Origin: Acidobacteriota bacterium
GTDB lineage: Bacteria; Acidobacteriota; Terriglobia; 20CM-2-55-15
NCBI GenBank assembly: GCA_022821265.1
Contig: JAJEDW010000076.1
Coordinates: forward strand, 1-49,106
Direction: 5' to 3'
Length of the DNA: 49,106 nt
Shown here: piece after piece, positions 26,763-48,985 of the stretch
Layout: each line of letters opens with the position of its first letter
Position numbering within the stretch: position 1 is the stretch's first letter
Notes under the pieces: model-generated
The model's input: the letters and a program-made list of their open reading frames with translations, nothing else
Told to the model about the DNA's origin: nothing
Database searches by the model: none
Program-made: the position numbers and the translations under genes

Positions 26763-28583
26763 CTACCCGTCGCCGCCGGAGTCTTCGTCGTCCGCGGGCG
26801 GCGGCGGATCCGGAAGCGGCTCGCCGTCCAGGACCAGCGCCACCATACGGGCCGGGACCATCGGTCCGTCTTCCTCCCCGCCGAAGCCGCCGCGGCCGAA
26901 TCCGGGACCGCTGCCGTTGACCTCGACGACGATGTACTGGCGCCCGTCCAGCTCGTAGGCGACCGGCGTGGCGAAGCTGCTGCCCAGGTATCCGGACCAG
27001 AGAGCCTCACCCGTCCCGGCGTCGTGCGCCCAGATCCGGCTGTCGCCCGGGCGGAACACCAGGTTGCCCGCCGTCGACAGCGTGCCGCCGCTGGTCCCGT
27101 TGCGTTCCACGCGCCAGACCTCGCTGTTGGTCACCGGATCCCAGGCCAGGACCACGCCGCCCCGGGGGCCCCTCAGTTCCGGCCGCGGCGGGCGATCATC
27201 GCCGGCGGCGCCGCGTCCGAACGGCACGCCGGTGTTGAACCCGCCGGGCTCGTATTCGAACTCGGCATCCACCGAGTAGAAGAAGTTGCTGCTTCCGGCG
27301 GGGAAGTAGACCAGGCCCGTATCCGGGTTGTAGGACATCGGATGCCAGTTGTGGGCGCCGCCGGGACCGGGACTCACCCAGACCCCCGTGCTCTCCGCGT
27401 CGTAGCGGGCGTCGGGGTTCTCGATGGGACGGCCGGTTTCCTGATCGATGCCGGTCGCCCAGGTCACGTCGTCTGAGAACGGTTGCGCGGAGATGAACGC
27501 GCCGCTGGTCCGGTCGATCACGTAGAAGAACCCGTTCTTGGGCGCCTTGACGATGACCTGGCGTTCCCGCCCGTCGATTTCCAGATCCAGCAGCATCAAC
27601 GGCTGCACGGCCGTGTAGTCCCAGTCGTCTCCCGGGGTGGTCTGGTAGTACCAGCGCATCTCGCCGGTGTCGGCGTCCACGGCGACGATGGACGAAAGAT
27701 AGAGGTTGTCGCCGCCTTCCGGACTGCGGATGGCGCGGCTCCAGGGCGAGCCGTTGCCCGTTCCGATGTAGAGGAGGTTCTCTTCCGGGTCGAAGGCGTA
27801 GCCGTCCCACACGGTGCCGCCGCCCCCGACGATCCACCACTCCCCGGACCAGGTCTCGGCGGCGCGCTCCATGGCCTCGCTCTCGAAACCGTCGGCCGGG
27901 TTCCCCGGCACGGTATGGAATCGCCAGAGCTGTTCGCCGGTCTCGGCGTCGTAGGCGGTGACGTATCCGCGCACGCCGAACTCGGCGCCGCTGTTGCCGA
28001 TCACGACCTTGTCGTTGACGACGCGCGGCGCCCCGGTGATGCTGTAGTCCAGGCCGAGGGGCGTGGTCTGGACCGCCCAGTCCACCAGGCCCGTGGCGCG
28101 GTTCAACGCTACGAGCCGCCCGTCGAGAAGCCCCGCGAACACCTTGTCGCCGTACATCGCAAGCCCGCGGTTCACCGGCCCGCAACACACGCTCGGCCCC
28201 CCGTCGGCACGGCTGCGCACGATCCCGGGATCCCAGCGCCAGATCTGCTCGCCGGTCCGCGCGTCGATGGCGAAGACGTTGCTCCAGGTCCCGGTGGCGT
28301 AGATCACGCCGTCGCGCACCAGCGGCGTGGATTCGAGGTTGCCGGCGGTGCCGGCGATTTCCCATTCCCAGGCCAGACCGAGCCGTTCGACGTTGGAGTC
28401 GTTGATCTGATCGAGCGGACTGTAATGCGTTTCGGCGTAGTCGCCGCCGTAGGTCAGCCACTCCGCATTGGGCGAATCCAGCAGCGCGTCCCGGTCCACG
28501 GGTTGTTGGGCGAGGACGACGCCCGCTGCCAACCCCATCGCAACGGCCAGACACCATCTCATCCGAGCCAGTGTGTTCGGCAT
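26763..28583 (-). CDS. PQQ-dependent alcohol dehydrogenase family protein (no heme c domain)
   Basis: Signal peptide VLA|[19 protein letters not shown] vicinal disulfide, [23 protein letters not shown] and GAHNW motifs. GGAAGGAG RBS. Confidence 0.93.
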   Translation of the reverse strand: MPNTLARMRWCLAVAMGLAAGVVLAQQPVDRDALLDSPNAEWLTYGGDYAETHYSPLDQINDSNVERLGLAWEWEIAGTAGNLESTPLVRDGVIYATGTWSNVFAIDARTGEQIWRWDPGIVRSRADGGPSVCCGPVNRGLAMYGDKVFAGLLDGRLVALNRATGLVDWAVQTTPLGLDYSITGAPRVVNDKVVIGNSGAEFGVRGYVTAYDAETGEQLWRFHTVPGNPADGFESEAMERAAETWSGEWWIVGGGGTVWDGYAFDPEENLLYIGTGNGSPWSRAIRSPEGGDNLYLSSIVAVDADTGEMRWYYQTTPGDDWDYTAVQPLMLLDLEIDGRERQVIVKAPKNGFFYVIDRTSGAFISAQPFSDDVTWATGIDQETGRPIENPDARYDAESTGVWVSPGPGGAHNWHPMSYNPDTGLVYFPAGSSNFFYSVDAEFEYEPGGFNTGVPFGRGAAGDDRPPRPELRGPRGGVVLAWDPVTNSEVWRVERNGTSGGTLSTAGNLVFRPGDSRIWAHDAGTGEALWSGYLGSSFATPVAYELDGRQYIVVEVNGSGPGFGRGGFGGEEDGPMVPARMVALVLDGEPLPDPPPPADDEDSGGDG

Positions 28584-28650
28584 CGCTCTCCTTCCTCCAA
28601 GTTCGGCCGCACGGGACCTGCGACTCACCGGTTTTCAACAGCGTGCGGGA

Positions 28651-28775: not shown

Positions 28776-28970
28776 TCAGAACGCCTTGGCCAGCCCGGCC
28801 TGGGCGAGAACGGCGTTGGCCGTATGCCGGGACTTGATGTTGTTGTCCACGGGAAAGCTCCGCCCGGAAATCGGACTGAACCAGATCTCATGATCTCCCC
28901 GTCCCTGGCGAACGAAATAGCAGCCGGCCTCGGTAAGAGCCCTCTTCAATCGCCGCGTATATGCCGGCAT
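28776..28970 (-). CDS. hicA: HicA-family mRNA interferase toxin
   Basis: 64 aa, basic, RQGRGDHEIW..P...FPV...HTANAVLAQAGL. TGATG overlap with the upstream antitoxin gene. Confidence 0.85.
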   Translation of the reverse strand: MPAYTRRLKRALTEAGCYFVRQGRGDHEIWFSPISGRSFPVDNNIKSRHTANAVLAQAGLAKAF

Positions 28971-29215
28971 CAACCCGCCAACACGATCTCCTCGATTCGT
29001 GTCGACGTGATCTCCAACCGAATGGTCTCGCAGTCCGCGTGTTCGAGAAGATGGCGGTTGGCCTGGTACAAGTCCGGAACAAGCTGGCGAACCTTGCGCA
29101 TCAATTCCTGCTGCGTCCCGGCCTCGGCGACCAGACCCGGGAAGTCGGTGTCCGACACGTACCAGACGCCGGCCTCCGCGTCCCACGAAATCGTAGCGAC
29201 ATAGGAATGAGCCAT
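28970..29215 (-). CDS. HicB-like antitoxin (DUF1902 type)
   Basis: WDAEAGVWYV..D.PGLVAEA.T..EL motif, 81 aa, AAGGAG RBS, coupled to hicA. Confidence 0.8.
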   Translation of the reverse strand: MAHSYVATISWDAEAGVWYVSDTDFPGLVAEAGTQQELMRKVRQLVPDLYQANRHLLEHADCETIRLEITSTRIEEIVLAG

Positions 29216-29424
29216 CGGATGTCTCCTTGACGGCAAGGCGTGGGAGCCGGTTCGGCCCGGTATTCAGCGTCTTTCCGTCGTCTGCCGCGTCCGCAAGGGC
29301 ATCATCGCCTACGAATTCCGCGCTTGGCAAGGCCCTGTGCGGAGCGGACGCCGGCAACCGTTGGGAACGGACCCATCCGGGTGTTCGCGGGCTCGGAACA
29401 CCGCCGAGGCGAGCCGCGGCAGTA

Positions 29425-29826
29425 TCATTCGTCGTCCCAGTTTCCGATGGTCGTTCCGTCGGCGAACTTCGCGCCGACGAACCCCCCGGCCGGCGCCCCG
29501 CTCAGCATCGGACGATAGCGCATCGTCACTTCGGCGCCCACTGGAAAGCTGGACGGGCGGATTCCGCGCCGGCCCAACTGGTTGGGGCTGCCCCACTCGA
29601 TGCTCCATTCCACGCTCTCCCCGCTCTCGTCCTCGACGAGCACCTGGATCCAGGTGTGGGGGTTCGTGAACTGGAAATACTTGACCGTGCCGGCGATCTG
29701 CCGGACTTCGTCCCGGGAGAACCCGGTGTTGGAGTGATGACCGAGCGCCGGGCGGGCGGCCAGGCACAGCCCGGCCGCGGCCACGCCGACAAGAGCGGCG
29801 TTTCCGAAGAGTCGTTGTCGCGTCAT
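29425..29826 (-). CDS. Exported His-His/NPH protein (DUF6152-like), copy 1
   Basis: Signal peptide ALG|HHSN, then GTV...FTNPHTWI...WSIE...LGRRG. Not listed separately in the ORF track (it is the tail of 29425..30681). Confidence 0.8.
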   Translation of the reverse strand: MTRQRLFGNAALVGVAAAGLCLAARPALGHHSNTGFSRDEVRQIAGTVKYFQFTNPHTWIQVLVEDESGESVEWSIEWGSPNQLGRRGIRPSSFPVGAEVTMRYRPMLSGAPAGGFVGAKFADGTTIGNWDDE

Positions 29827-29858
29827 GGCAAGCCCCTTGGGTTCGGAGATCGGTCGCC

Positions 29859-30704
29859 TCAATCGAGCGGAAACGGGTTCCCGTCCGGGTCGAGCGTCAA
29901 CGTGACGCCCTGTTCCGTATCGACCGGATTGCGGTTGTTTTCCGCGCACCCGTAGTCGTACACCATCGTGCCCGGCGGCAGTCTTCGAAACTGGTGCGTG
30001 ACGGGCCACGGCCCGGTCAGGGCCTGCGGATCGGTGATGACCATGTCGATCTGAAGATTGCCCGCATCGTTCACGTACATTCGATGCGTCCCTTCCGCCT
30101 GGTTGCTCAGCACGAGGCCCGTGCGATCGAGCAGGACATCCCGGTCCATCCAGCCCTTCGTGCTCTTGGTTTCCCACACGAGTGTCCGACCCTCCCAGCG
30201 CCCCACCGAGACACCCGTGTACGTGGGCCAGCGGTCTTCCGGAGCGGGCATCTCGCGCCCGTCGGTGTAGATCCTGTAGACGTTGGGTCCGTTCTCGCTC
30301 AGGATCCACGTCTGTTCCGGCCGAACGACCATCTCGTAGACGTCCGGCAGGTTGAAGATACGGGGCCACCCCACGGGAACCCCGCAGTTGGATATGACGT
30401 CCGGGAACCGTTGCTGGTCCCTCAGCGCCAGGTGCTCCCGGTACATGGCTTCCCACTCGGCGTTGTAGGGCGGATGCTCCCGGACCCCCGGAGTCGTCGA
30501 ACCGCCCTCCCCCTCCCGGGTCGCCTGATCGAAAACCGTGCCGCCGATCATTTGCCAAACGCCGCTCCAATCCGGGAGATCGCCGAAGTCGGGCGGGGTG
30601 TCTCCCTGAGCGCGGGACGTACCCGGCGCGAGGAGGAGAATGACGCCGAGACCGGCAATCAGGGCGGCCCTTCGAGACCACAGTGACTGGCTGCTATTCC
30701 ACAT
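29859..30704 (-). CDS. Exported two-Cys 'WEGDTL' domain protein, copy 1
   Basis: Signal peptide SRA|Q. PDWSGVW, NCGVPVGWPR, GRWEGRTLVWET, DP..LTGPW and YGCAENN. Alternative TTG start at 30713. Confidence 0.8.
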   Translation of the reverse strand: MWNSSQSLWSRRAALIAGLGVILLLAPGTSRAQGDTPPDFGDLPDWSGVWQMIGGTVFDQATREGEGGSTTPGVREHPPYNAEWEAMYREHLALRDQQRFPDVISNCGVPVGWPRIFNLPDVYEMVVRPEQTWILSENGPNVYRIYTDGREMPAPEDRWPTYTGVSVGRWEGRTLVWETKSTKGWMDRDVLLDRTGLVLSNQAEGTHRMYVNDAGNLQIDMVITDPQALTGPWPVTHQFRRLPPGTMVYDYGCAENNRNPVDTEQGVTLTLDPDGNPFPLD

Positions 30705-30857
30705 GACCTTCAACCTCGTGACTCGCGGCTCCTTCCGAAACGGCTCGGCTGCGATTCGGGACTGAAACCCGACGGTAACGGAATTGTAAATTCAGTGCCC
30801 GCCGCACGACAAGCCCGAACGACGGCCGGCGGGAGCGCATCTGTTAACGTTACGGGC

Positions 30858-34332: not shown

Positions 34333-36033
34333 TCAGTCCAGGGAGAACGTCCACACCGCCGAGCCGCCTTCGCCGCCCCGGCCCGCCATGACCGAGACGT
34401 ATTGGCGGCCGTCGAGCGCGTAGGTGACGGGCTGCCCCGGGCCGGGGGCCGTGGCCGCTTCCCAGAGCGTCTCGCCCGTCTCGGCGTCCAGCGCCTGGAA
34501 CCGGCCGTCGGCCTTGCCGACGAAGAGCAGGCCGCCGCCGGTCGAAAGCGTGCCCCCGTGAGAGCCGTCGCCGGCGATGCGCCACCGCTCTTCCTGGGCC
34601 ACGGGATCCCACGCGACCAGGAACCCGCCCCGGTTGGGCATCCCCGGGTTCGGAGGCCGGACGAACCCCTCGGGCGCCCCGCCGCGGCCGATCAATCCCG
34701 TGTTCGAGCGTCCGAACTGGTACTCGTACGCCGTGTTGACGGCAAAGTAGTTGTTGCCGTTCTGACCGGGAATGTAGACCAGGCCCGTCGCCGGGTTCCA
34801 CGACATGCCCTGCCAGTTGTGCGCGCCGTAAGGGCTGGGCCACAGCCACGCGGGACCGGTCCGGCTGTAACGCGCGTTCGCGGCTTCGATGGGACGGCCC
34901 GTTTCCGGATCGACGCCCTCCGCCCAGTTGACTTCCGCGAACGCCTCGGCCGATATGAACGCGCCCGTCACGCGATCGATGACGTAGAAGAAGCCGTTCT
35001 TCGGCGCCTGCATCAGCACTTTCCGTTGGCGGCCTTCGATCGTCAGCTCCGCCAGGATCATCGGTTGCACGGCGGTGTAGTCCCATTCGTCGCCGGGCGT
35101 CGTCTGGTAGTACCAGACGAGCTCGCCGTCGTCGGGCCGCACGGCCAGGATCGACGACAGGTAGAGGTTGTCGCCGCCGCCGGGGCTCCGGAGCGTCTGC
35201 GTCCAGGGGCCCCCGTTGCCGGTGCCGACGTAGAGCAGGTCCTCCTCGGGGTCGTAGGCGAACGCGTCCCAGACCGTCCCGCCGCCGCCGAGCTCCCACC
35301 ATTCGCCCGTCCATGTCTCGGCCGCGCGCGCCAGCGCGTCGCTCTCGAAACCGTCGGCGGGGTTGCCGGGCACGGTATGGAAGCGCCACGCCTGCTCGCC
35401 GGTTTCCGCGTCATAGGCGGTGAAATACCCGCGGACGCCGAATTCCGCCCCGCCGTTGCCGATGACGACCTTGCCCTTCACGACGCGCGGCGCCCCGGTG
35501 ATGCTGTATTCGTCGTCCCTGGGCGTGGTCTGGACCGACCAGACGACGCGCCCATTTTCGGCGTCGAGCGCCACCAGGCGCCCGTCGAGGAGACCGACGT
35601 ATACCTTGCCCGCGTACAGGGCCGCGCCCCGGTTGACCGGACCGCAGCACAGGTGCGGCCCGCCCGGGCCCCGGGGGATGCCCGCGTCCCATCGCCAGCG
35701 CTCCTCGCCCGTGCGCGCATCCAGCGCGAACACGCTGTTCCAGGTTGTGGTCCCATACATGACCCCGTCGGCGATGAGCGGCGTCGCCTCCAGCGTTCCG
35801 GTCGAATCGGTATCGTAGGACCAGGCCGGCGCCAGCCCGCCGACGTTGTCCGTGTCGATCAGATCGAGCGGGCTGTGTCGCGTTTCCGCGTAGTCGCGGC
35901 CGTTGGACAGCCACTCCTCCGCCGGGACCTCCCGCAAACGCGTGTCGTCGACGGCTTGGCGGGCCAGGGCGTGGCCGCCCCAACCCAGCAGGGCCATCGC
36001 CAACAAGCCGGCGCGAAAGTTGCAGGTGCGCAT
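34333..36033 (-). CDS. PQQ-dependent alcohol dehydrogenase family protein, paralog 2 (no heme c domain)
   Basis: Signal peptide. [32 protein letters not shown] and GAHNW motifs. Start re-called at 36033. Confidence 0.93.
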
Positions 36034-36106
36034 GGCGGCCTCTCTTGTAATACACGCGCCCGGAAAGTACAAACGGATTTGCGGAACGCCCACCGGGAGG
36101 GTCGAC

Positions 36107-37468
36107 ATGTCCAACGCCGAGACAACGCACATGAATCGGAGGGAGTTCGCCGGAACTCTGGGCGCCGGGGCCGCCGTGCTGACCTCGTGCGCCTCGGGAC
36201 CATCGGCGCCGCCCGACGCCCGGCCCAACGTCATCTACGTCATGGCCGACGACATGGGCTATGGAGACCTCAGCGGCTACGGACGCCCCGACGTGGAAAC
36301 GCGCGCCCTGGACCGCCTCGCCTCCGAGGGCGTGCGGTTCACGCAGGCGTATTCGACCGCGCCGATATGCACGCCGACGCGAGTCGGGATGGTGACGGGC
36401 CGTTACCCGGCCCGCCATCCCGTCGGCCTGATGGAACCGCTGCGCACGGGCGTGGCGGCGCATCGGCTCATGGGGTTCGATCCGGAACACCCGACCCTGA
36501 GCTCGCTCCTGCAGGGCGGCGGCTACACGACCGCGTTGTTCGGAAAGTGGCACCTGGGCTGGCTGCCCGAGTACCGTCCCGAGCGCCATGGCATCGACGA
36601 GTTCTTCGGCCCCCTGGGCGGGTCGATCGATCACATCAGCCACATGAACGCCATGGGCGAACACGACCTCTACCGCAACGGCGAGGAAGTCTTCGAGGAC
36701 GGGTACTTCACCGATCTCGTGACCGACCATGCCGCCCGTTTCCTGGCCGAGCGGCGCGAACCGTTCTTCCTGAGCCTGCAATACACGGCGCCCCACTGGC
36801 CGTGGCAGCGACGGAACGATCCGCCCTACGAAGCCGGCCGGCCGCTGGACGACGACGGCCCGCCCGGGATCTATCCCGAAATGCTCCGGATATTCGACGA
36901 GAACGTGGACCGCCTGATGGCGGCCGTCGACGACGCTGGCGTTCGGAACAACACGATCGTGATCTTCACCAGCGACAACGGCGGCGAACGCTACTCCAAC
37001 ATGGCCGGTCTGGCCCGTGCGAAAGGCGAAGTCTGGGAGGGGGGCATTCGCGTGCCCGCTTTCGTGCGTTGGCCGGGCGTCATCCCGGCCGGCGGAACCA
37101 CGACGCAGGTCGCGATGGGATTCGACTGGACGGCCACGATCCTGGCCGCCGCCGGCGTCGATGCGGCGGAAACGCATCCGTTGGACGGAATCGACCTGAT
37201 GCCGGTGATGCGTGGAACGGCGCCGGCCGTGGAACGCACGCTCTTCTGGCGGACGTTCCAGTCATCGCGGCAGGGAGCCGTTCGGAGCGGTGATTGGAAA
37301 TACCTCCGGGACGAACAGGGCGAGCACCTGTTCAACCTGACCCTCGACGCCGGAGAACGCAACGATCTCGGCGAAGTCGAAACCGCCCGGTTCGAGCGGC
37401 TCCGGGCCGCCTACGTGCAGTGGGACGCGGAAATGCTGACGCCGGTTCCCCTGGCCCTGGACGCCTGA
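36107..37468 (+). CDS. Sulfatase (Cys-type) with twin-arginine lipoprotein-like signal
   Basis: NRREFA Tat motif and LTS|C lipobox. [28 protein letters not shown] and EGGIRVP. Alternative start at 36131. Confidence 0.9.
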
Positions 37469-40695: not shown

Positions 40696-41127
40696 TTATC
40701 GGGCCGGCTCGGTGGGGTCGGAGCCGTCCAGCGGCGCGCCCGTGCCCGACGAACCGGCAAACAGGCGCCGTCCATCGGGAAACGTCACGTCCCGCCCGTT
40801 GGCCCGGTTCGATCCGTCCAGCGCGCGATAGCCCTCGACCAGAACTTCCGTGCCCGGCACGACCGAATCCCGGTTCCACCCGCGCCGCACCAGCGCGCCC
40901 GGGGGGCCGGCTTCGATCATCCAACTTTCGACGGTGCCGTCCTCCAGGGTGACGTCCAGGTGCATCCAGGCGTGCGGATTGATCCATTCCATCCGCGTGA
41001 TCTGGCCGCGCAGGCGCACCGGCTGGGTCGAGTCGAACTCCGCCGCGAACGCATGATGGGCCATCGCCGGCTCGACGCCGATCAGCGCGAAGGTCACGGC
41101 CCACAGAAGAACCCAGGCCTTCCGCAT
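40696..41127 (-). CDS. Exported His-His/NPH protein (DUF6152-like), copy 2
   Basis: AMA|HHAF, then GQI...WINPHAWM...WMIE...LVRRGW. GAGG RBS. It is the tail of ORF 40696..41832. Confidence 0.83.
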   Translation of the reverse strand: MRKAWVLLWAVTFALIGVEPAMAHHAFAAEFDSTQPVRLRGQITRMEWINPHAWMHLDVTLEDGTVESWMIEAGPPGALVRRGWNRDSVVPGTEVLVEGYRALDGSNRANGRDVTFPDGRRLFAGSSGTGAPLDGSDPTEPAR

Positions 41128-41132
41128 CGTGA

Positions 41133-42866
41133 TCACCTCTCTTCGTCCTCGCCCGCCCGCTCCCGCGCGCGAGCCCCGGTGAGTATGTTGGTCATGCCGT
41201 AGTTGCCTTCGTGGCAGGCGTATTCGACCAGCTCGTATTGCGAGTCGTCCTTGTCGAAGGTGAACATCGCCGTCCAGGGCCGCGTCCAGGTCGACGGGTC
41301 GTCGACCGTGAAACGGTATTCGAGGATGTCGGGGCCGATCCGCGTGTACCGTTCGATCAGCGTGAGCGTCTCTCCGGATCCGCGGTACGGCGCCCGCCCG
41401 TTGAAGCCCCGGACCTCGACCACGAGCGTGTCCCCTTCCCAGCGGCCGCGGGAATCGCCGAGCCACTGCGTCAGGTTCTCGCCGAGTCGGGGCCGCGGCT
41501 CGGTTGGAACGATGCGGGTTTCGTGAATCATTTCTTTCGTGATCGCCACGTGTCCGGGACCCTGGACGATCTGCAGGCCGTTGTTGTAGATGCCCGGCAT
41601 CATCAGGCCGGGGAGGCCCCGCGTGATGCAGCGCACATAGTTGCTCAGGTCTTCCGGCCCCGCCGGCAGCCCGCCGCGTCCACGCCCGCCGCCGGACATG
41701 CGGGCCTGGGCCTCGGGCGTCAACGGCGGAAGCCGTCCGTCCGGCGGATCGATCACCATGGCCACCTGCGTGGACGGCGACGACCCGACCAGACCGAGCG
41801 TCGTGTCGCGCCACTCCCGCTCGTAGCCCCATATGCTGCCCAACGTGCCGCGTTCGCGCCGGGCGGCCGCTTCTTCCGGAGTCAGCGCCTCGACGCCCTC
41901 GAGGTCGCCGGGGCGTTCCAGCGGAATGCCGTGAGCCCGGTCCCCGGTCCAGATTCCCTGCAGGTCGGGAGCGCCCCAGGGCGTGCGCGGCGCCGTGTAC
42001 GGCTCCAGCGGCACGGCCGGGCCGGCGTCAGTCGCCAGCAGGGTGGTTTCACGACCCGCCCAGCCCGGCTCGACGACCGCCAGGGCCACGCTGTCCGGAC
42101 CCGCGACGAAGGCCCGCCGCGCCGATGTCCGGCCCGCCTCGGGTTCGCCCTCGAACGCGATGCCGGCTTGACTCATGACACCGGCGGCTTCGTCCAGGTC
42201 CGCGACCAGGAAGCCGATGTGGTCCACGGCCCGGCCGCGCGTCGGCGCCGGCGGCGCGCCTTCCGGGTGCGGCGAGACCAGGAGCCAGACGTTGTCGTAC
42301 ATCAGGCCGTCGAGTTCCTCGCCGAAACGGGCGCGCTCGCCCCCCATGACGGACTGATACCAGTCCAGGGTCGCTTCCGGCTCGGTCGAGCTGAGGTGCA
42401 CGTGGTGGAACCCGCTCCGCGACGGGTCTTCGAGAAGCTCGATCCGCGTGCCCCAGGGATCGAAGATGAATCCGTGCGCGAACAGCCCCGGCACGTCTCG
42501 AAACGTCGAACCGTCGTCGAACCGCTGCAACCGGACGCCCCGCCCGCCGACACCGACGCGTTCGAGCTCCGCCATCTTGTCCGCGAGGTCCGGGAAAGCG
42601 AAGCCGATGTGATTCACCCCGGTGCCCGGGCTGGCTCCGACCGTAACCAGGGCGTCGAAGTGGATCTCGACGCCGCAATCGACCGCGTCGGCGCGATCCG
42701 GGATCGCTTCGCATTCCATGTGGCGCACATACCAGGCGACGGCCTCGGTCGGGCTGGGAACGGCCAGATGGACGTGGTGGTAGTCCGCCGCCCGTGTCGG
42801 GTTCGGCGCGGCGGCCATCGAAACCGCGATGGCCAGGGACGTCAGGGCGGCATGTCTAGTGTTCAT
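41133..42866 (-). CDS. Exported fusion: tandem VOC (glyoxalase-like) domains + two-Cys 'WEGDTL' domain
   Basis: Signal peptide, then DYHHVHL..HIGF..IELLE and GFHHVHL..DHIGF..VVE (VOC). Followed by PDLQGIW, RCITRGLP, GRWEGDTLVVE and EYACHEGN. Confidence 0.83.
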   Translation of the reverse strand: MNTRHAALTSLAIAVSMAAAPNPTRAADYHHVHLAVPSPTEAVAWYVRHMECEAIPDRADAVDCGVEIHFDALVTVGASPGTGVNHIGFAFPDLADKMAELERVGVGGRGVRLQRFDDGSTFRDVPGLFAHGFIFDPWGTRIELLEDPSRSGFHHVHLSSTEPEATLDWYQSVMGGERARFGEELDGLMYDNVWLLVSPHPEGAPPAPTRGRAVDHIGFLVADLDEAAGVMSQAGIAFEGEPEAGRTSARRAFVAGPDSVALAVVEPGWAGRETTLLATDAGPAVPLEPYTAPRTPWGAPDLQGIWTGDRAHGIPLERPGDLEGVEALTPEEAAARRERGTLGSIWGYEREWRDTTLGLVGSSPSTQVAMVIDPPDGRLPPLTPEAQARMSGGGRGRGGLPAGPEDLSNYVRCITRGLPGLMMPGIYNNGLQIVQGPGHVAITKEMIHETRIVPTEPRPRLGENLTQWLGDSRGRWEGDTLVVEVRGFNGRAPYRGSGETLTLIERYTRIGPDILEYRFTVDDPSTWTRPWTAMFTFDKDDSQYELVEYACHEGNYGMTNILTGARARERAGEDEER

Positions 42867-42901
42867 GGCACGTGACCTCATGCATCGGACGGGCGTGTCT
42901 T

Positions 42902-43717
42902 TCAGTCCGCCGGCTCGCGCCGCAGGTGTCCGTAAATCAACTCCTCGGAAAACTCGACGCACTTGAATTCTAGGATTTGAACGTTTTCTTCAAGCCGGCG
43001 ATAGAGCGGCATGCGCATGGTCCATGGACGCGTGAAGACGTTCGGATCCTCGATCGTCGCTTCGTACATCATCGCGTTCGGCCCCAACGGCGTGTAACGC
43101 TCTTCCACGCGCAGCGTGTTGCTGGCGAAGTTGCCGGCGCGGTCGAACCAGGACTGGCCGTTGAATCCCGCGACGTCCACGACCAGCGTGTCGCCGTCCC
43201 AACGGCCATGCGAGCGCCCCATCCAGCTGTCGATCGGGGCCGGCTCGGGATTCTCCTTGTTCATGTGGATCGTCCGGCTCGTTTCCGCGAACCCGTAGAC
43301 GATCAGGATCGTGTCGTCGCCCTGAATGATCTGGAACGGGTACGGCAGGTAGGTGGCGCGCGGCACGCCCGGCATGTAGCACTTGATCTCGGGATCCTCG
43401 GTGAACCGGTTCTCGAAGTTCCGTTGCTTCTGCTCGAGCGCCCAGTCCTGGTACGGAATCTCGTTGCCTTCGACCACGCCCTGGCCGGGCGGAATCGCGC
43501 CGATCGCCCCCATTTCGGGCAGGCCGGCCGCTGCGGCATGGTCCTGAATGTCCCAATGCGCCGTGCCGATGGCTTGCCAGATGCCGTTCAGGTCGGGGCG
43601 CCCGTCCCAGGCGCGGGCGAGGTCGGCCTCCTGGGCCGCCGCAACGTTCGCGAATACCAGGAGCGCCGCGGCCGCAAGCGACGTCCGGCGACTCCACCGA
43701 TGATGCTCGAACCCCAT
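42902..43717 (-). CDS. Exported two-Cys 'WEGDTL' domain protein
   Basis: AAGGAG RBS, signal AAA|Q. PDLNGIW, KCYMPGVPR, GRWDGDTLVVD, EDP..FTRPW and EFKCVE. Confidence 0.83.
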   Translation of the reverse strand: MGFEHHRWSRRTSLAAAALLVFANVAAAQEADLARAWDGRPDLNGIWQAIGTAHWDIQDHAAAAGLPEMGAIGAIPPGQGVVEGNEIPYQDWALEQKQRNFENRFTEDPEIKCYMPGVPRATYLPYPFQIIQGDDTILIVYGFAETSRTIHMNKENPEPAPIDSWMGRSHGRWDGDTLVVDVAGFNGQSWFDRAGNFASNTLRVEERYTPLGPNAMMYEATIEDPNVFTRPWTMRMPLYRRLEENVQILEFKCVEFSEELIYGHLRREPAD

Positions 43718-43768
43718 GGACCCTCTCCTTATAGGGTGCCGCGTCACGGCAGTCAAGAAACGGACGGC

Positions 43769-44170
43769 CTACTGGAGCGTGATCCTGAAATCGCCGGCCG
43801 TGTCTCCGTGGCGCCACGTGCCGACGACGGAGCGGGTGGGCGACCCGAGGTCCTCGATCCGGCCGTCGATGACGTATGTGATCGGGTTTCCGGCGGGGTC
43901 CTCCGCCTCGATCCGGATGTGTACGGACCAGTCGCTCGGGTCGAGACGCGCCTCGGTGAACGGCAGGTCGTCCGTGCCGGGATTGACGATTCCCGTGATC
44001 CGCTGCCCGTCCCAGTCCATGGCCACCCGGATACGGTTCCGGTGGTCCGGCGACGGCCCCCAGTAACCGACCCAACTGCCGGTCAGCGGGTGCGCCTCCT
44101 GGGACGAGACCCCGGGCGCCGCGCCGACAACCAGCAGAAGCCCCAACGGGATGCAGAGGGAAAGTTTCAT
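43769..44170 (-). CDS. Small exported beta-rich hypothetical protein
   Basis: Signal MKLSLCIPLGLLLVVGAAPGVSS|QEAHP, then LTGSWVGYWG, MDWDG..ITG.VNPG and GTW...GDF. Confidence 0.75.
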   Translation of the reverse strand: MKLSLCIPLGLLLVVGAAPGVSSQEAHPLTGSWVGYWGPSPDHRNRIRVAMDWDGQRITGIVNPGTDDLPFTEARLDPSDWSVHIRIEAEDPAGNPITYVIDGRIEDLGSPTRSVVGTWRHGDTAGDFRITLQ

Positions 44171-44207
44171 TGTCTCGCGGGGGTCGAATGGCCGCAGAAT
44201 ATACCGC

Positions 44208-45377
44208 ATGAAGACCGGAGCACAACACCCGGAAAGACTTCGCCGGAGGAGGGGCGTCGACCCGCGCACCGCGCGGCGAACGCGGACGGCGCTGATCGGC
44301 GCCTGGTTGTGGGCGTGCGCGCCGCCGCTGGGGGCGCATCATGTCGCCGCCGCCAAGTTCGATCCGGAACGGCCCGTTCGGTTCGAAGGCCGGGTCACCA
44401 AGGTCGATTGGGCCAATCCTCACGTCCACGTCTTCGTCGACGTCGAAGCCCCCGGCGGAGTCGCCAACTGGGCGATCGAGCTCGAAAGCCGCGCGTCCCT
44501 GGAAGCTTCCGGATGGCGGGCCGACACGCTCGCGCTCGGCGAGCCTGTCACGGTCGACGGTTGGGCCGCCCGGGACGGCAGTCTTCAAGCCTGGTCGACG
44601 GCGCTGGCCCGGAGCGGGACCGACGCGCGTCTGTTCGAAACGACGGACCCGGTCGCGGCGTCGGTCCCGTTCCGCGAGACGCCGCGATGGCCGGACGGCC
44701 AGCCGCGTTTGGGACCGGTCCCCGGCGAAACCGGATACTGGGGGAATCCGACGGCGACGGCGCTCGTGGAAGTCGGTGCGGACGTCGAGGTCAGTCCCGA
44801 CGGCATCCTGGCCGACCTGGGCGACGCGCCCGCCGTTGCGCCGTTCCAGGATTGGGCGCTTGCGTTGTACGAGGCCCGGCAGCGCGACTTTCTCGGCAGC
44901 GATCCGAGCTTCCTGAGATGCATCCCGCCGGGCGGCCCCCGGCAGTTCCAGTTGCCCTACGGCGTTCAATTCGTCGAGCAGCGGGATCGGGAGCGCATCT
45001 TCGTCCTCGTCGGGAGCGGCAACCGCAATTGGCACTTCATCTACACCGATGGAAGGGTCCAGGTCGGCCAGATCACCGGAGACGACGACAACCCGCTGTA
45101 CTACGGCCGTTCCGTCGGCGCGTGGGAGGGCGACACGCTCGTCGTGGACACGCGCGGCTTCAACGAGGATTTCTGGTTTTCCAACGGCGGCCTGCCGCAC
45201 ACCGAACGCCTCCATCTGATTCAAAGGATCACGCGCGTGGACTTCGACACGCTGCGTTACGAGGTGACGATCGACGACGCGGGCGCGTACACGCGGCCGT
45301 GGACGGCGGGTTGGAACCTGGAGTGGATCGCCGGCCGGGAACTGCCGGTATACTTCTGTCAGGACAACCGGCCATGA
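44208..45377 (+). CDS. Exported fusion: His-His/NPH (DUF6152-like) domain + two-Cys 'WEGDTL' domain
   Basis: LGA|HHVA...DWANPHVHV...WAIE, followed in frame by PRWPDG, RCIPPGGPR, GAWEGDTLVVDT and YFCQDN. Confidence 0.85.
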   Translation: MKTGAQHPERLRRRRGVDPRTARRTRTALIGAWLWACAPPLGAHHVAAAKFDPERPVRFEGRVTKVDWANPHVHVFVDVEAPGGVANWAIELESRASLEASGWRADTLALGEPVTVDGWAARDGSLQAWSTALARSGTDARLFETTDPVAASVPFRETPRWPDGQPRLGPVPGETGYWGNPTATALVEVGADVEVSPDGILADLGDAPAVAPFQDWALALYEARQRDFLGSDPSFLRCIPPGGPRQFQLPYGVQFVEQRDRERIFVLVGSGNRNWHFIYTDGRVQVGQITGDDDNPLYYGRSVGAWEGDTLVVDTRGFNEDFWFSNGGLPHTERLHLIQRITRVDFDTLRYEVTIDDAGAYTRPWTAGWNLEWIAGRELPVYFCQDNRP

Positions 45378-46210
45378 GACGAAACCATTGCCTGCTGACG
45401 GCTGCGGTGTCGATTCTGCTCGGGGTCCCGGCGCCGCCGGCGTTCTCGCAGGCCGCCGACGCCGTGGAGCCGCGGCCCGCCCCCCGATGGCCGGACGGCC
45501 GGATCCGTCTGGACGCGGTTCCCGGAGAGACGGGCATCTGGTACGGCCCGGGCGGCCCCGTTCCCGGCTTGGCCGATTGGGACGACAACCCGCAGCCGCA
45601 CCCGTTTCCCGGCCGGCCCACAGTCAGCGAGGTGCCGTTCCAGCCGTGGGCGCGCGCCCTGATCGACTACCGCGACGTCAACCAGTTCGAACCGCACGCG
45701 CGCTGCAAGCCGTCGGGCGGCGTCCGGCAGTTCGTGACCCCGTACGGGAACGAGATCGTCGAGATGCGCGATCTGGAGCGCGTGTACATCTTCGACGTCG
45801 GCGGCCCACACACGTTCCGCATCGTCTACATGGACGGCCGCGAGCACCCCGAAGACCTGACGCCCAGCTATTACGGCCATTCCATCGGCTGGTGGGAAGG
45901 CGACACGCTGGTGGTCGACACCGTGGGATTCAACGAGAAGTTCTGGATCGACCGCCGAATCACGGTCCATACGCGGCAGCTCCACCTGATCGAACGGTTC
46001 ACGCGCACCAGCCATGACACCATGGAGTACGTCGTGACCATCGACGATCCCGGCGCATACACGGAACCCTGGACCAGCGGCATGTACCTGCGGTTCCGGC
46101 CGGGTCAGGAGATGTTCGAGTACATCTGCCAGGACCAGAATCAGGCCTTCGAGCTCATGGTGGGCACGCAGGTCGAGTCGTATTTCCGGCAGAGCCGGAT
46201 CGCGCCCTGA
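45374..46210 (+). CDS. Exported two-Cys 'WEGDTL' domain protein
   Basis: ATGA overlap with the upstream gene, signal AFS|Q. PRWPDG, RCKPSGGVR, GWWEGDTLVVDT and EYICQDQN. It is the last 278 aa of the 1077-aa ORF. Confidence 0.83.
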   Translation: MRRNHCLLTAAVSILLGVPAPPAFSQAADAVEPRPAPRWPDGRIRLDAVPGETGIWYGPGGPVPGLADWDDNPQPHPFPGRPTVSEVPFQPWARALIDYRDVNQFEPHARCKPSGGVRQFVTPYGNEIVEMRDLERVYIFDVGGPHTFRIVYMDGREHPEDLTPSYYGHSIGWWEGDTLVVDTVGFNEKFWIDRRITVHTRQLHLIERFTRTSHDTMEYVVTIDDPGAYTEPWTSGMYLRFRPGQEMFEYICQDQNQAFELMVGTQVESYFRQSRIAP

Positions 46211-46230
46211 CCCGATACGGAAGGGGGCGG

Positions 46231-46848
46231 ATGATGCTATCCCGACTCGTTTTCGCGGCGCTGGCCGCGTTTCTCGCGATCCCCGCTCTCGCGCAGGGTT
46301 GGGAGACCTACGTCAACCGCGAGGACCGGTTCAGCGTGAACTTTCCGGGCGAGCCCGGGGTGGAGGCCATCAAGTGGGACTCGGAGTATCGCGCCGTCTT
46401 CCCGGGCCGCGTCTACAGTTACGAAGACGGCGGCGAACGGTATTCCGTCACGGTCATCGACTACTCCGATTCCGAACGCATCCACGCCGAACGGACCAAC
46501 AGGACGCAGGCCGACAGCCTGCCGAACTACTGGCAGATCGACGTGCTCTCGTCCATCGCGTATGCCGCGTGGCAGTTCCGGCAACGCGCGGTCGAGGTCA
46601 CCTACGACGCCTGGCACTACATCGACCTGATCGCCGGGCACCAGCTCCAGCTCACCAATCCCGACCAGACGCGTTCGTTCGTGGGCATCTACCTCCACGA
46701 GAGCCGCCTCTACATCATCGAAGCGACGGCGCCTCCGGGTTCCCCGCCGCCCGGGCTGTTCCAGCAGTCGCTGACGTTTCTCGACGACGCGGGCAACCGC
46801 GTGCGGTACGACTACATCTACACGAACACACTGCCGCCGCTGCGCTGA
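46231..46848 (+). CDS. Exported hypothetical protein (possible PsbP/DcrB-like fold)
   Basis: Signal ALA|Q. W..Y....RFSVNFP at the start and RLYIIEAT...FQQSLTF at the end resemble PsbP/Mog1-type proteins (inference). Confidence 0.72.
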   Translation: MMLSRLVFAALAAFLAIPALAQGWETYVNREDRFSVNFPGEPGVEAIKWDSEYRAVFPGRVYSYEDGGERYSVTVIDYSDSERIHAERTNRTQADSLPNYWQIDVLSSIAYAAWQFRQRAVEVTYDAWHYIDLIAGHQLQLTNPDQTRSFVGIYLHESRLYIIEATAPPGSPPPGLFQQSLTFLDDAGNRVRYDYIYTNTLPPLR

Positions 46849-46861
46849 AGGAAGGAGAGCC

Positions 46862-47233
46862 ATGCCTTCGATACTGTCGCCTCTCGCAACCGGCTTGGCG
46901 CTGGCGGCCGCCCCGGCGGCCATGGCCCACCATTCGCACGGAAACTACGAGATGACCGAGTACATCCGGATGGAGGGCACGGTCACGGAGATCCACTGGA
47001 TCAACCCGCATAGCTGGATCTACCTGGAAGTCACCGGCGAGGACGGGCAATCCGATGTGTGGGCGCTGGAAGGAGCGAGCGTCATCGAGCTCCGGCGGGA
47101 GGGCTGGGCCGAGGAGAGCATCCGTCCAGGCGACCGGATCGGCGTACGCTGCCATCAGCTCCGCGACCGGTCCAACGGGTGTCTGCTCGGATACGTCACG
47201 ACCGACGGAGGCGAAGAAAAGCTGTTCGACTGA
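46862..47233 (+). CDS. Exported His-His/NPH protein (DUF6152-like), copy 4
   Basis: AMA|HHSH, then GTV...WINPHSWI...WALE...LRREGW. GGAAGGAG RBS. Confidence 0.85.
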   Translation: MPSILSPLATGLALAAAPAAMAHHSHGNYEMTEYIRMEGTVTEIHWINPHSWIYLEVTGEDGQSDVWALEGASVIELRREGWAEESIRPGDRIGVRCHQLRDRSNGCLLGYVTTDGGEEKLFD

Positions 47234-47353
47234 GCCGGCCGGCCGCCTCGCTCGATTCGAGGCCGTCCCGCGCGGTTCTGATCTTTAGTGTTACCTTCCC
47301 GGGCCGGAGACCTGATAAGCTGACGCGAAACGACGTTCGATGGGCATTCGGTC

Positions 47354-48985
47354 TTGAATTTTCTCAAGTCACAGCGTAGGGTGCTGCTTGTCGTGCTGAC
47401 GGGCGCGGTCCTGCTCGTATTGGCCGTGCTGCAGTACCTTTGGGTCGGGGACCTCACCCGGTTCGAGCTGGAGTTGACCGAACGGAACCTGGCGGCGGCG
47501 ACCCGCGGTTTCACACGCGAGTTGGGCGGGGTTTTCCAGAGCATCGGATCCACCTACCGCGTGCGGCGGGGACCCAGCCTGGATCAGGAACTCTTCGACG
47601 AGTACCGATCGTGGCGGGAATCCACGATGTATCCCGGGCTGATCGTCGACGCGTACTGGATCGATGCCGAGCCCGCGGACAGCCCGGCGCTCACGCCGGA
47701 ATACCGGATCCGACGGGCGCGGCTCGACGAAGCCGCGCTCGTTTCCGTGGAATGGCCGTCGGCGTTCGCGCCGATCGAGCGCCGGCTGGCGGATTCCGTT
47801 GATTTCAGTCTTCGGCCGCCCTCGCGCGTACCGCGCGAGTGGATGATCCCGTTCGACGACGATCGCTGGGCGTACGTGGTCCCGCAGGGAACGTTGGGGC
47901 CCCGCGGCTGGGCCGTAGCCATACTGGATCATCGCGTGCTCTTCGAGGGTTTGATTCCCGCGCTCGTCGATCGGTACTTCGGGGCCGAAGACCAGCGGGA
48001 CTACCGCGTGCGCCTGGTGGGCGGCGGCGATCCGGGCTCCAGAGTCCTCTACTCCACGGATGCCGATTTCGCGGCCGACACCGGGACGCCACCCGACATT
48101 CGGCGCAACATCGTCGACGCAGGCGCGAACTGGGCCGTCGAGGCCACCCACGAATCGGGCTCGCTCGAGACCTATGTCGGATGGCATCGTTGGCGAAACC
48201 TGTCACTCGGAATCGGCGCGGTCATCGTACTCGGCCTCAGCTTCGGCTTCCTGGTAACCGCGAACCGCCGCGCGCAGGCGCTGGCAGATCGCCAGATGGA
48301 GTTCGTCGCGGGCGTATCGCATGAACTCCGGACCCCGATCGCGGGAATCTCATCCCTCAGCCAGAATCTCGCCGACGGCGTCGTCCGCGATCTCGACCAC
48401 GCGGCGCGCTACGGCAAGTCCATCAACGCCGAAAGCCACCGGCTGAACGCCATGGTCGAGAAGGTCCTCCGCTATTCCGCCGTCCGTTCGGGTCAGTACC
48501 GCTATGAACGGGAGCCTCTCGATGTCGGCAGCGTCGTCGAGTCCGAGTTGGAGGCCGTACGGCAGTCATCAGGCGAAGAGGGACGCATCGACGTGACCAT
48601 CGAAGACGGGCTTCCGCCCGTCTCCGGCGACGCCCAGGCGTTGCGGTCGGTCGTCGGCAACCTGATTTCGAACGCGCTCAAATTCGATCCGCGCCAAGGC
48701 AAGATCGCCGTCGGCGTCCGATCCGTGGGCCGCGAGATCGAGATCTCGGTCCAGGACAGCGGCGCCGGCATATCGGCGGCCGATCGGTCTCACATCTTCG
48801 AACCCTTCTACCGCGGTCAGGCCGCCCATGCGGGCCAGGCCGAGGGATCGGGTCTGGGGTTGAGTCTCGTCCGCGAGTTCGTCAAGGCCCATCGCGGTCG
48901 TGTCGACGTCGCGGCCGAGGCCGGCGACGGCACCCGGTTTCTCGTCTATCTGCCGGCCGCAGGCACGGAAAGCCCGAGTGGATAG
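47354..48985 (+). CDS. Membrane sensor histidine kinase
   Basis: Two TM helices with a periplasmic domain. SHELRTP H-box, NLISNALKF, DSGAGI, IFEPFYR and GSGLGL. TTG start is uncertain. Confidence 0.93.
   Translation: MNFLKSQRRVLLVVLTGAVLLVLAVLQYLWVGDLTRFELELTERNLAAATRGFTRELGGVFQSIGSTYRVRRGPSLDQELFDEYRSWRESTMYPGLIVDAYWIDAEPADSPALTPEYRIRRARLDEAALVSVEWPSAFAPIERRLADSVDFSLRPPSRVPREWMIPFDDDRWAYVVPQGTLGPRGWAVAILDHRVLFEGLIPALVDRYFGAEDQRDYRVRLVGGGDPGSRVLYSTDADFAADTGTPPDIRRNIVDAGANWAVEATHESGSLETYVGWHRWRNLSLGIGAVIVLGLSFGFLVTANRRAQALADRQMEFVAGVSHELRTPIAGISSLSQNLADGVVRDLDHAARYGKSINAESHRLNAMVEKVLRYSAVRSGQYRYEREPLDVGSVVESELEAVRQSSGEEGRIDVTIEDGLPPVSGDAQALRSVVGNLISNALKFDPRQGKIAVGVRSVGREIEISVQDSGAGISAADRSHIFEPFYRGQAAHAGQAEGSGLGLSLVREFVKAHRGRVDVAAEAGDGTRFLVYLPAAGTESPSG

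Follow-up and report, generated by a model that had tools for sequence, protein, structure and literature searches.

Organization of the gene cluster

This report concerns a cluster of eight close-set genes at positions 40696–47233 of a 49,106-nucleotide contig (JAJEDW010000076.1, from the Acidobacteriota bacterium assembly GCA_022821265.1), the whole of which is called the window below. The listing of open reading frames (ORFs), together with start-codon placement, arranges these genes in two divergent operons, and all of them encode exported proteins. Three of the genes carry a domain named here A, four carry a domain named B, one gene being counted in both groups, and two encode accessory proteins, acc1 and acc2. 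Judged from its sequence, the cluster represents a single locus within a very large and unnamed family of Sec-exported two-component modules. An earlier note on this DNA, made from the letters alone, had described eight exported proteins in two divergent operons with this composition of domains, as well as an independent B-A pair. All of the genes were found and leaders are present on each of them, the domain assignment was confirmed by matches to the Pfam family DUF6152 (PF19649) and by alignment of the B domains, and the independent pair is present at 29425–30713.

The operon on the minus strand contains, in the order of coordinates, A1, VOC-B, B2, and acc1. A1 (40696–41127) encodes an exported DUF6152 protein of 143 residues (PF19649, E = 2.1e-32, 111.6 bits), in which the site AMA precedes a predicted mature N-terminus of His-His and the motifs HH, NPH, and WxxE are seen in alignment. 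VOC-B (41133–42866) encodes an exported protein of 577 residues, consisting of an N-terminal part of the VOC/glyoxalase type and a C-terminal domain B that aligns with the other B sequences. B2 (42902–43717) encodes an exported protein of 271 residues, assigned to domain B by alignment, and acc1 (43769–44170) a small exported protein of 133 residues that recurs in fusion-type modules as their third component. The operon on the plus strand starts with AB (44208–45377), which encodes one exported chain of 389 residues, DUF6152 followed by domain B (PF19649, E = 3.3e-19, 69.2 bits), and its stop overlaps by 4 bp with the start of B4 (45374–46210), which encodes an exported domain-B protein of 278 residues. 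Next are acc2 (46231–46848), for an exported, lineage-specific protein of 205 residues, and A3 (46862–47233), for an exported DUF6152 protein of 123 residues (PF19649, E = 6.2e-31, 106.8 bits), also with a predicted mature N-terminus of His-His. Spacing within the operons varies from the 4-bp overlap up to a gap of 51 bp. The separate pair lies 10 kb upstream of the cluster on the minus strand and comprises B0 (29859–30713), encoding a domain-B protein of 284 residues by alignment, and A0 (29425–29826), encoding a DUF6152 protein of 133 residues (PF19649, E = 1.7e-23, 83.0 bits). Inspection of the translations revealed, in 10 of 10 proteins of the cluster and the pair, a hydrophobic signal-peptide-like leader closing in a small-x-small site.

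The 577-residue protein requires a separate comment. Its residues 153–261 match Glyoxalase_4 (E = 3.1e-11, 43.9 bits with a cut-off of 27) and Glyoxalase (E = 4.4e-11, 43.7 bits with a cut-off of 20.6), and another VOC module, spotted by eye only, stands before residue 153. All NCBIfam equivalogs were under their cut-offs for this protein, so no specific enzyme can be named, and none of the ten proteins exceeded an NCBIfam cut-off. The earlier note missed the VOC/glyoxalase domains of this protein.

Size of the family and linkage of A with B

The source assembly is a fragmented metagenome-assembled genome (MAG) of 3.88 Mb in 351 contigs, 85.6% complete. A first profile scan of this genome gave 86 matches to DUF6152 and 126 to B. 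The six-frame search with hidden Markov models (HMMs), which were built from four A and five B sequences and run on reading frames taken stop-to-stop (as were the neighbour analyses presented below), gave 85 A frames and 124 B frames, 13 of them carrying both domains, and 196 frames in total. These counts bear out the diversification by paralogy that had been proposed from the window.

The two domains are encoded side by side. In the own genome, A lies within 500 bp of B in 70 of 85 cases and within 2 kb in 78, and four of the 85 A frames are placed on a contig, often short, without any B. From the side of B, 94 of 124 frames have an A within 2 kb and 23 have none on the contig. The usual units are B-A, A-B, B-B-A, and A-B-B, and in low-copy genomes one A stands beside two or three adjacent B, in B-B-A, B-B-B-A, or A-B operons. 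The single-A loci L095–L099 (genomes G029, G041, G056, and G018) may be the simplest systems for study.

A and B also occur in the same genomes. The 61 genomes examined from the same class comprise 32 with both domains, one with only A, none with only B, and 28 with neither; the lone A-only genome holds a single sub-threshold A match (E = 5e-4). Among 41 genomes around an unrelated Gammaproteobacteria MAG (E ≤ 1e-30), both are present in 25 and neither in 16, with no discordant case. Pooling of the two lineages gives 102 genomes, 57 with both, 44 with neither, and one discordant (the weak A-only genome), although these genomes are related and the counts are therefore not independent. The co-occurrence of A and B repeats in two lineages with no clear exception.

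The joining of both domains in one chain is not limited to the described cluster. Among 8,000 candidates, 3,961 match as relatives of the AB fusion, and the 120 relatives listed are 329–427 residues long and all carry PF19649. Neighbourhood counts for the fusion were made at 80 loci encoding AB, over which the fusion is kept at 54–87% identity and whose titles name Acidobacteriota, Vicinamibacterales, Terriglobia, Solibacteraceae, Gammaproteobacteria, Rhodospirillales, and Acidimicrobiia. The pairs encoded by separate genes were compared by their distance matrices, for 41 adjacent pairs of near-full-length sequences taken from the 70 A with a B within 500 bp. The Mantel correlation between the A and B matrices was 0.358, a value reached in 0 of 2000 permutations (maximum 0.247), and for 6 of the 41 pairs the partner of the closest A paralogue was itself the closest B paralogue. 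A/B pairs duplicate and diverge as units. Functional linkage of A and B is supported by adjacency, co-occurrence, conserved fusion, and co-diversification taken together.

Physical contact was addressed by co-folding of mature B0 with mature A0, which gave ipSAE values of 0.39, 0.54, and 0.50 (median 0.50) versus 0.00 for the best of three controls. The predicted local distance difference test score (pLDDT) of the partner was at least 87, and the runs shared at least 82% of contacts. This result is rated as weak support: of the pairs used for calibration, 58 of the 80 solved complexes and 2 of the 110 mismatches attain the applied mark, but scores of 0.60 or lower were given by only seven of those 80 solved complexes, plus both passing mismatches; since the co-fold was run on custom alignments, these benchmark counts hold only roughly. 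Owing to the strong prior that comes from fusion and adjacency, we consider it likely that a physical A:B complex forms.

Distribution

In the taxonomic family of the window, A was found in 29 of 34 other genomes, and whole genera have none or one copy (in genus g4, two of five genomes with one copy each; in g10, none of two). Outside the family, A is present in 3 of 26 genomes of the class, one of them with at least 46 matches. First-look candidates in the 61 genomes of the class reach up to 157 A and 300 B per genome, and copy numbers there are lower bounds, as at most 67 A and at most 41 B candidates were scored per genome. MAGs titled Gammaproteobacteria, Rhodospirillales, and Acidimicrobiia hold at least 73, at least 46, and at least 67 A matches, respectively. 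In 14 well-known control genomes no A match was obtained. The A/B family is patchy, massively expanded where present, and rare in model organisms, which probably explains its obscurity. The nearest named relative in the genome collection used is a MAG titled Acidobacteria bacterium, with the AB protein at 87% identity. DNA of the window (at least half of its sequence words) was found in three runs of one study, labelled sponge metagenome, and no RNA sequencing runs holding the window sequence were listed. It is also worth mentioning that many B matches of the Gammaproteobacteria set contain one or two in-frame TGA or TAG codons (e.g., G061:C1:4677493-4678287 and G064:C283:6365-7114), and these may represent read-through over adjacent tandem B genes or broken copies.

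Domain A

Four of ten proteins scanned (A1, AB, A3, and A0) match DUF6152 with E values from 3.3e-19 to 2.1e-32, above the gathering cut-off of 27 bits, so the resemblance seen earlier was correct. The alignment of the four A domains has in common the motifs H-H, N-P-H, and W-x-x-E, and in 34 aligned sequences the invariant residues are H30, H31, N55, P56, H57, W59, W74, and E77. In the own genome, HH followed by NPH 18–32 residues further on was found in 75 of 85 A copies, and another eight have HH with a variant NPH. HH is present in 83 of the 85, and the remaining two copies are truncated where their contigs end. In the 75 motif-bearing copies HH is preceded by alanine (60), glycine (10), or serine (2), and at position -3 alanine (49), valine (10), and leucine (7) prevail, so that in 72 of these 75 copies HH stands straight after a site with A/G/S at -1 and A/V/L at -3. 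As this is a classic signal-peptidase-I site, mature A is predicted to start with His-His. Export through the Tat pathway was considered for the A/B modules and rejected, the twin-arginine motif being rare in all four protein sets searched (1/120, 2/150, 3/120, and 0/120). The rarity of Tat-like motifs points to export via Sec, in which case any cofactor must be acquirable in the periplasm.

The A part of the fusion model consists, according to DSSP, of strands 51–67, 72–81, 84–94, 113–121, and 127–135 and a helix 95–100, with pLDDT of these blocks about 90. Domain A is therefore predicted to be an oligonucleotide/oligosaccharide-binding fold (OB-fold) barrel of about 100 residues, with five strands and the helix between strands 3 and 4. 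The Foldseek search with the A part led to OB-folds, namely the anticodon-binding domain of lysyl-tRNA synthetase (E = 2.5e-4) and a single-stranded DNA-binding protein (1ue6_B, E = 2.7e-3, target TM 0.56). The comparison of the A profile with PDB sequences gave four matches with E from 0.029 to 1.9, all on query residues 4–49, mostly signal peptide, and they were judged meaningless.

Domain B

Five B domains align over approximately 250 residues with 26–35% identity and 24 invariant columns. These columns cover G-x-W, the first cysteine, G-x-W-x-G-x-T-L-V, D..T-x-P-W, and the last cysteine, and reproduce the B motifs of the earlier note, just as HH, NPH, and WxxE reproduce those listed for A. 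In a wider set of 39 diverse B sequences the sole invariant residues are G54, C111, G168, W174, L179, D225, and C252, with W56 nearly so. For B2, B4, B0, acc1, and acc2 no match in Pfam or NCBIfam was obtained at E ≤ 0.1. The word-indexed search with B2 returned at least 8000 candidates at E ≤ 1e-3 (8000 of 8000 scored), and among the 120 relatives listed there is no Pfam domain and "hypothetical protein" is the sole descriptive name, which upholds the statement that B has no named family. The exhaustive search with B4 yielded 11,222 representatives of clusters at 50% identity at E ≤ 1e-3, including 4,908 at E ≤ 1e-10. In the Atlas, 30 near B clusters have no common Pfam family; among the farther clusters, DUF6152 is present in 100% of 459 members and Glyoxalase in 22% of 67 members. 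Longer B proteins were searched for extra domains, and nine of ten representatives showed no Pfam family and one of ten DUF6152, whereas the eight long B-containing frames of the own genome showed no further Pfam domain.

The AlphaFold2 model of B4 (pLDDT 82.0, predicted TM-score 0.79) contains an early G-x-W strand (residues 54–57), a helical insert, and eight antiparallel barrel strands. The best PDB fold matches of this model are a tardigrade SAHS protein (E = 9.8e-3) and cellular retinol-binding protein (E = 2e-2), followed by UnaG, fatty-acid-binding proteins (FABPs), and avidins, all of them weak (E from 9.8e-3 to 0.1, target TM 0.40–0.49). From this model, the fold of B is probably a calycin/FABP-like barrel. 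Exactly two cysteines are present in 37 of 45 near-full-length paralogues, and between 21 and 132 residues (median 65) separate G-x-W from the first cysteine in the 34 of 45 where both motifs could be located. The two conserved cysteines probably form a disulfide that would connect the insert to the C-terminus.

The fusion sub-module and accessory proteins

The surroundings of AB at the 80 fusion loci follow a pattern. A relative of acc1 is located up to 3 kb from AB in 69 loci, in 67 there is a separate A gene no more than 400 bp after AB, in 54 this A is in turn followed by a B at a distance of up to 700 bp, and a further A or B is found within 3 kb of AB in 79. At L001, the closest relative locus, the whole eight-gene layout is repeated. 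By comparison, acc2 was found in 2 of 80 loci and the VOC fusion in 1 of 80. The own genome encodes 14 acc1 paralogues, nine of them up to 250 bp from A or B, and no acc2 paralogue. The recurrence of acc1 at fusion loci together with its paralogues argues that it is a real third component of the fusion subtype, while acc2, confined to its lineage, is best taken as a local addition; the two accessory proteins counted in the earlier note differ in standing. Neither protein is a diverged B, as the hhalign probability is 6.6% for acc1 and 5.3% for acc2.

Genomic neighbourhood

The second large expansion of an exported family in this 3.9-Mb genome is that of pyrroloquinoline quinone (PQQ) dehydrogenases, with 41 paralogues, and the window itself holds two such genes (26763–28628 and 34333–36234, both on the minus strand). 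Fourteen of the 41 paralogues lie within 3 kb of A/B, a zone covering 14.7% of genome bases (binomial p = 0.0015), and a further 11 lie within 10 kb. At the 80 fusion loci the recurrent families are PSCyt/PSD cytochrome-c proteins (13), PD40 propellers (13), DUF1552 (12), outer-membrane barrel receptors (11), PQQ dehydrogenases (11), and CAP-domain proteins (10). The two largest apparent neighbour families of these loci were excluded, being arginine-rich shadow frames that arise in GC-rich DNA. Low-copy operons adjoin an Oar-type outer-membrane barrel, a multihaem-like cytochrome or cytochrome-c-like protein, a TPR-thioredoxin protein, a PQQ-type propeller, or a multicopper oxidase. The company of A/B modules is one of exported redox and uptake proteins.

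Some of these neighbours merit attention of their own. PSCyt/PSD proteins (DUF1592, DUF1588, DUF1585, DUF1587, and DUF1595) and DUF1552 proteins make up another uncharacterised exported pair (e.g., L072:2838-5291 and L076:1472-2872), and frames that resemble them lie near A/B clusters of the own genome (C78:5012-7603 and C27:15-1799). Inspection by eye of frames recurring within 3 kb of own-genome A/B pointed to a metallo-beta-lactamase-like exported protein (eight copies), a membrane protein (six copies), and a protein with a CxxCH-like motif (five copies), with examples at C339:6179-7714, C158:13280-14263, and C302:14098-15117.

Proposed function and alternative explanations

The reading proposed here, on the grounds of sequences and models, is that A and B form a heteromer in the periplasm, where small organic ligands of various kinds are held by B and an invariant, probably metal-binding histidine site is given by A, the whole being a metal-dependent enzyme or a unit of metal-assisted binding. 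We put it forward tentatively, as a possibility that falls somewhat short of probable. According to this proposal, cleavage of the signal peptide would leave His-His as the first two residues of A, and these histidines, with the N-P-H histidine and the tryptophan and glutamate of strand 3, would make a fixed, probably metal-binding site. A and B would assemble in the periplasm either as separate chains or as fused AB. Many assemblies would contain B and A in a ratio of two to one, and one subtype would also include the small protein acc1. The barrel of B and its variable insert would hold one of many small organic ligands, probably hydrophobic or amphipathic, and A would present its invariant histidine site to the bound ligand. 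The module would then act as a metal-dependent, most likely oxidative, enzyme or as a metal-assisted binding unit, and may feed periplasmic catabolism carried out with PQQ dehydrogenases and, in the described cluster, with VOC domains. The fusion of B to VOC and the PQQ-dehydrogenase neighbours argue for transformation of small substrates rather than for metal trafficking.

Several observations weigh against this proposal. The His-His N-terminus rests on cleavage predicted from sequence. Of the obligate complex proposed in the earlier note, the functional linkage is supported, whereas a physical complex received weak support from the co-fold on custom alignments (0.50 versus 0.00), and the mirror-tree signal can come from duplication of pairs without physical contact. 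Invariant polar residues, by which an active site might be recognised, are few in domain B, no PDB fold match for the B4 model was obtained at E ≤ 1e-3, and no PDB sequence match for the B profile at E ≤ 10. The enrichment of PQQ dehydrogenases near A/B is modest and was calculated for a fragmented MAG with short contigs and for paralogues that are not independent, and 16 of the 41 genes have no A/B within 10 kb or on the contig. Finally, frames similar to TonB-dependent receptors are not enriched, with 8 of 79 within 3 kb versus 14.7% expected, although enrichment is what a role in nutrient uptake might predict; single examples of TonB-type or outer-membrane receptors beside A/B do exist.

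A more specific form of the proposal would make the A:B modules metallo-oxygenases of a new, periplasmic class, in which the processed His-His N-terminus of an OB-fold subunit forms a histidine-brace-like copper centre or an iron centre of three histidines and an exchangeable calycin-type subunit supplies the substrate pocket. Some 100–200 such genes per genome would then allow uncultured Acidobacteriota, Gammaproteobacteria, Rhodospirillales, and Acidimicrobiia to attack many kinds of recalcitrant organic compounds outside the cytoplasm, alongside PQQ dehydrogenases. We regard this form as speculative and unlikely.

Among the alternatives, a non-catalytic carrier deserves the most serious consideration, even if we find it rather unlikely. 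In such a system, B capped by A would shuttle poorly soluble organic compounds across the periplasm to dehydrogenases or transporters, and the histidines of A would serve in assembly or gating. It agrees with the best fold matches of B, which are carrier proteins (FABP, cellular retinol-binding protein, and avidins), with the scarcity of invariant polar residues and the hypervariable insert in B, and with the presence of PQQ dehydrogenases and outer-membrane barrel receptors among the neighbours; high copy number and pairwise diversification also recall families of binding proteins. However, HH and NPH, kept in 75 of 85 paralogues, and the tryptophan and glutamate that are invariant with them in 34 of 34 aligned sequences are unusually strictly conserved for a structural contact, the B domain is found fused to VOC enzyme domains, and receptors show no enrichment near the modules.

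The strict pairing raises the question of whether A and B are an inhibitor or immunity-type pair, where the OB-fold of A, with its free N-terminus, plugs an active site and B is the enzyme or toxin neutralised, or where A targets foreign enzymes. Adjacency, co-occurrence, co-diversification, and the weak co-fold would all fit such a pair, as would the predicted OB-fold of A with its invariant, predicted processed N-terminus. A conserved fusion in one chain, kept in 80 loci of several phyla, is nevertheless ill-suited to a toxin with its antidote, approximately 200 frames per genome greatly exceed what is usual for pairs of this type, Pfam and NCBIfam pointed to no toxin or enzyme family for B, and A has no TIMP-type cysteines, all of which renders this explanation improbable.

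An equally improbable explanation is that A is a small copper or redox protein, scaffolded by B, which takes electrons from PQQ dehydrogenases and cytochrome-containing proteins. It draws on the enrichment of the former near A/B (14 of 41 within 3 kb, p = 0.0015), on the cytochrome-c PSCyt/PSD proteins found in 13 of 80 fusion loci, and on export by Sec, which leaves only simple metals to be loaded. Yet A genes are about twice as numerous as PQQ dehydrogenase genes and most of them are not adjacent to one, A lacks the Cys/Met ligand set of blue-copper proteins, and a large and variable ligand-barrel partner would have no role. Handling or buffering of copper, zinc, or another ion, in the manner of the CusF and CopC chaperones and one of the options of the earlier note, is the least probable of all. 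In its favour, A is exported and predicted to be an OB-fold like CusF, its N-terminal histidines resemble the sites of CopC type, and one low-copy B-B-A operon has a multicopper oxidase in its vicinity. Metal chaperones, however, are conserved proteins encoded in few copies, which fits poorly with 85 A and 124 B frames (and at least 46 to at least 73 A in MAGs of three other lineages), with co-diversifying paralogues, and with the variable insert of B, and the recurrent neighbours include no known metal-resistance genes.

The A/B family is of importance beyond the single locus. Together, A and B fill 196 frames of a 3.9-Mb genome, and a similar expansion is seen in MAGs from three or more further lineages, whereas genomes from elsewhere in the same family and class have few copies or none. 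Where gene families reach such abundance, strict pairing, and patchiness, they usually point to an ecological capability of major weight in uncultured bacteria from soil, sediment, or hosts. If the processed His-His is a metal centre, metal chemistry in the periplasm would gain a new scaffold; if it is not, the modules would nonetheless represent a novel type of ligand-binding system there. In either case approximately one-twentieth of the genes of such genomes, by a rough estimate from the 196 frames, would gain an annotation.

Comparison with known systems

No paper was found on DUF6152/PF19649 or on a histidine brace combined with an OB-fold in a literature search that covered texts outside of supplementary files, and none of the abstracts consulted on Acidobacteriota, sponge symbionts, and PQQ concerns the A/B family. 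The combination of an OB-fold with a calycin-like barrel is not known to us from any system described so far. Domain A belongs, well above the cut-off, to DUF6152, a Pfam family that carries no assigned function, and what is new for this family is the constant partner B and the copy number.

Histidine-brace copper proteins include lytic polysaccharide monooxygenases (LPMOs), CopC, YcnI, and the CuB site of PmoB, and their hallmark is a histidine as the first mature residue, close to which a second histidine side chain completes a T-shaped N3 site for copper; in YcnI the copper site is accompanied by glutamate and tryptophan. Similarly, a histidine is the predicted first mature residue of A in 75 of 75 motif-bearing copies, and its conserved His, Glu, and Trp could complete a site. 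In contrast to these proteins, which have an immunoglobulin- or cupredoxin-like sandwich, A is predicted to be an OB-fold, it has two consecutive histidines at the N-terminus, and it works with a separate barrel protein. Membership of A in the LPMO, CopC, or YcnI families was rejected on the fold, an OB-fold being predicted in place of a beta-sandwich.

Two exported OB-fold proteins are closer in predicted architecture. CusF is a periplasmic Cu(I)/Ag(I) chaperone with His, Trp, and two Met ligands on strands 2–3. A is likewise a small exported protein, predicted to be an OB-fold, with a conserved histidine at the start of strand 2 and a tryptophan on strand 3, but it differs in its HH N-terminus, in about 85 copies per genome, and in its obligate partner B. 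A metallochaperone of the CusF type was rejected as an identity for A, which has no conserved Met ligands and whose conserved set is HH, NPH, W, and WxxE. The second example, TIMP, inhibits zinc proteases and uses its free N-terminal residue as the functional tip. The N-terminal domain of TIMP and A share export, the OB-fold (predicted in A), and a free N-terminus; however, TIMP starts with a disulfide-bonded cysteine, whereas A starts with His-His and has no conserved cysteine, and its partner is a barrel and not a protease.

For B, the nearest known group is the calycin superfamily (fatty-acid-binding proteins, lipocalins, and avidins), antiparallel barrels of 8–10 strands with a G-x-W signature on the first strand. 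The modelled order of elements in B, namely the G-x-W strand, the helical insert, and the antiparallel barrel, is that of FABPs, but B is twice the size of calycins and has an insert of 21–132 residues, two conserved cysteines, and no sequence relative in the PDB. As a genomic phenomenon, the modules may be compared to the expanded paired exported families known as SusC/SusD in Bacteroidota and PSCyt-PSD/DUF1552 in Planctomycetota, which they resemble in that tens to hundreds of adjacent and co-diversifying exported pairs are encoded per genome. There is no sequence or fold relation to these families, and A and B are small soluble proteins, unlike an outer-membrane transporter with its lid.

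Regulatory signals and other genes of the window

The start codons of the two divergent operons (44170–44208) are 37 bp apart. A scan of the region for promoters found no sigma-70-like sites, so the promoters of the cluster either overlap coding sequence or belong to another type. The same scan returned two terminator-like sites versus a mean of 3.7 in shuffles, and the hairpin at 47261–47277, just 3' of A3, is a weak terminator candidate, given that shuffled versions of the region contain more sites of this kind. The last gene of the cluster is followed after 120 bp by a gene for a sensor histidine kinase (HisKA and HATPase_c; 47354–48985, plus strand). Between one of the PQQ dehydrogenase genes and the B0-A0 pair, at 28776–29236 on the minus strand, there are a HicA-toxin-like ORF (E = 8.4e-8) and a DUF1902 ORF (E = 8e-17), which by their sequences probably constitute a toxin-antitoxin pair. 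The window also encodes PutA.

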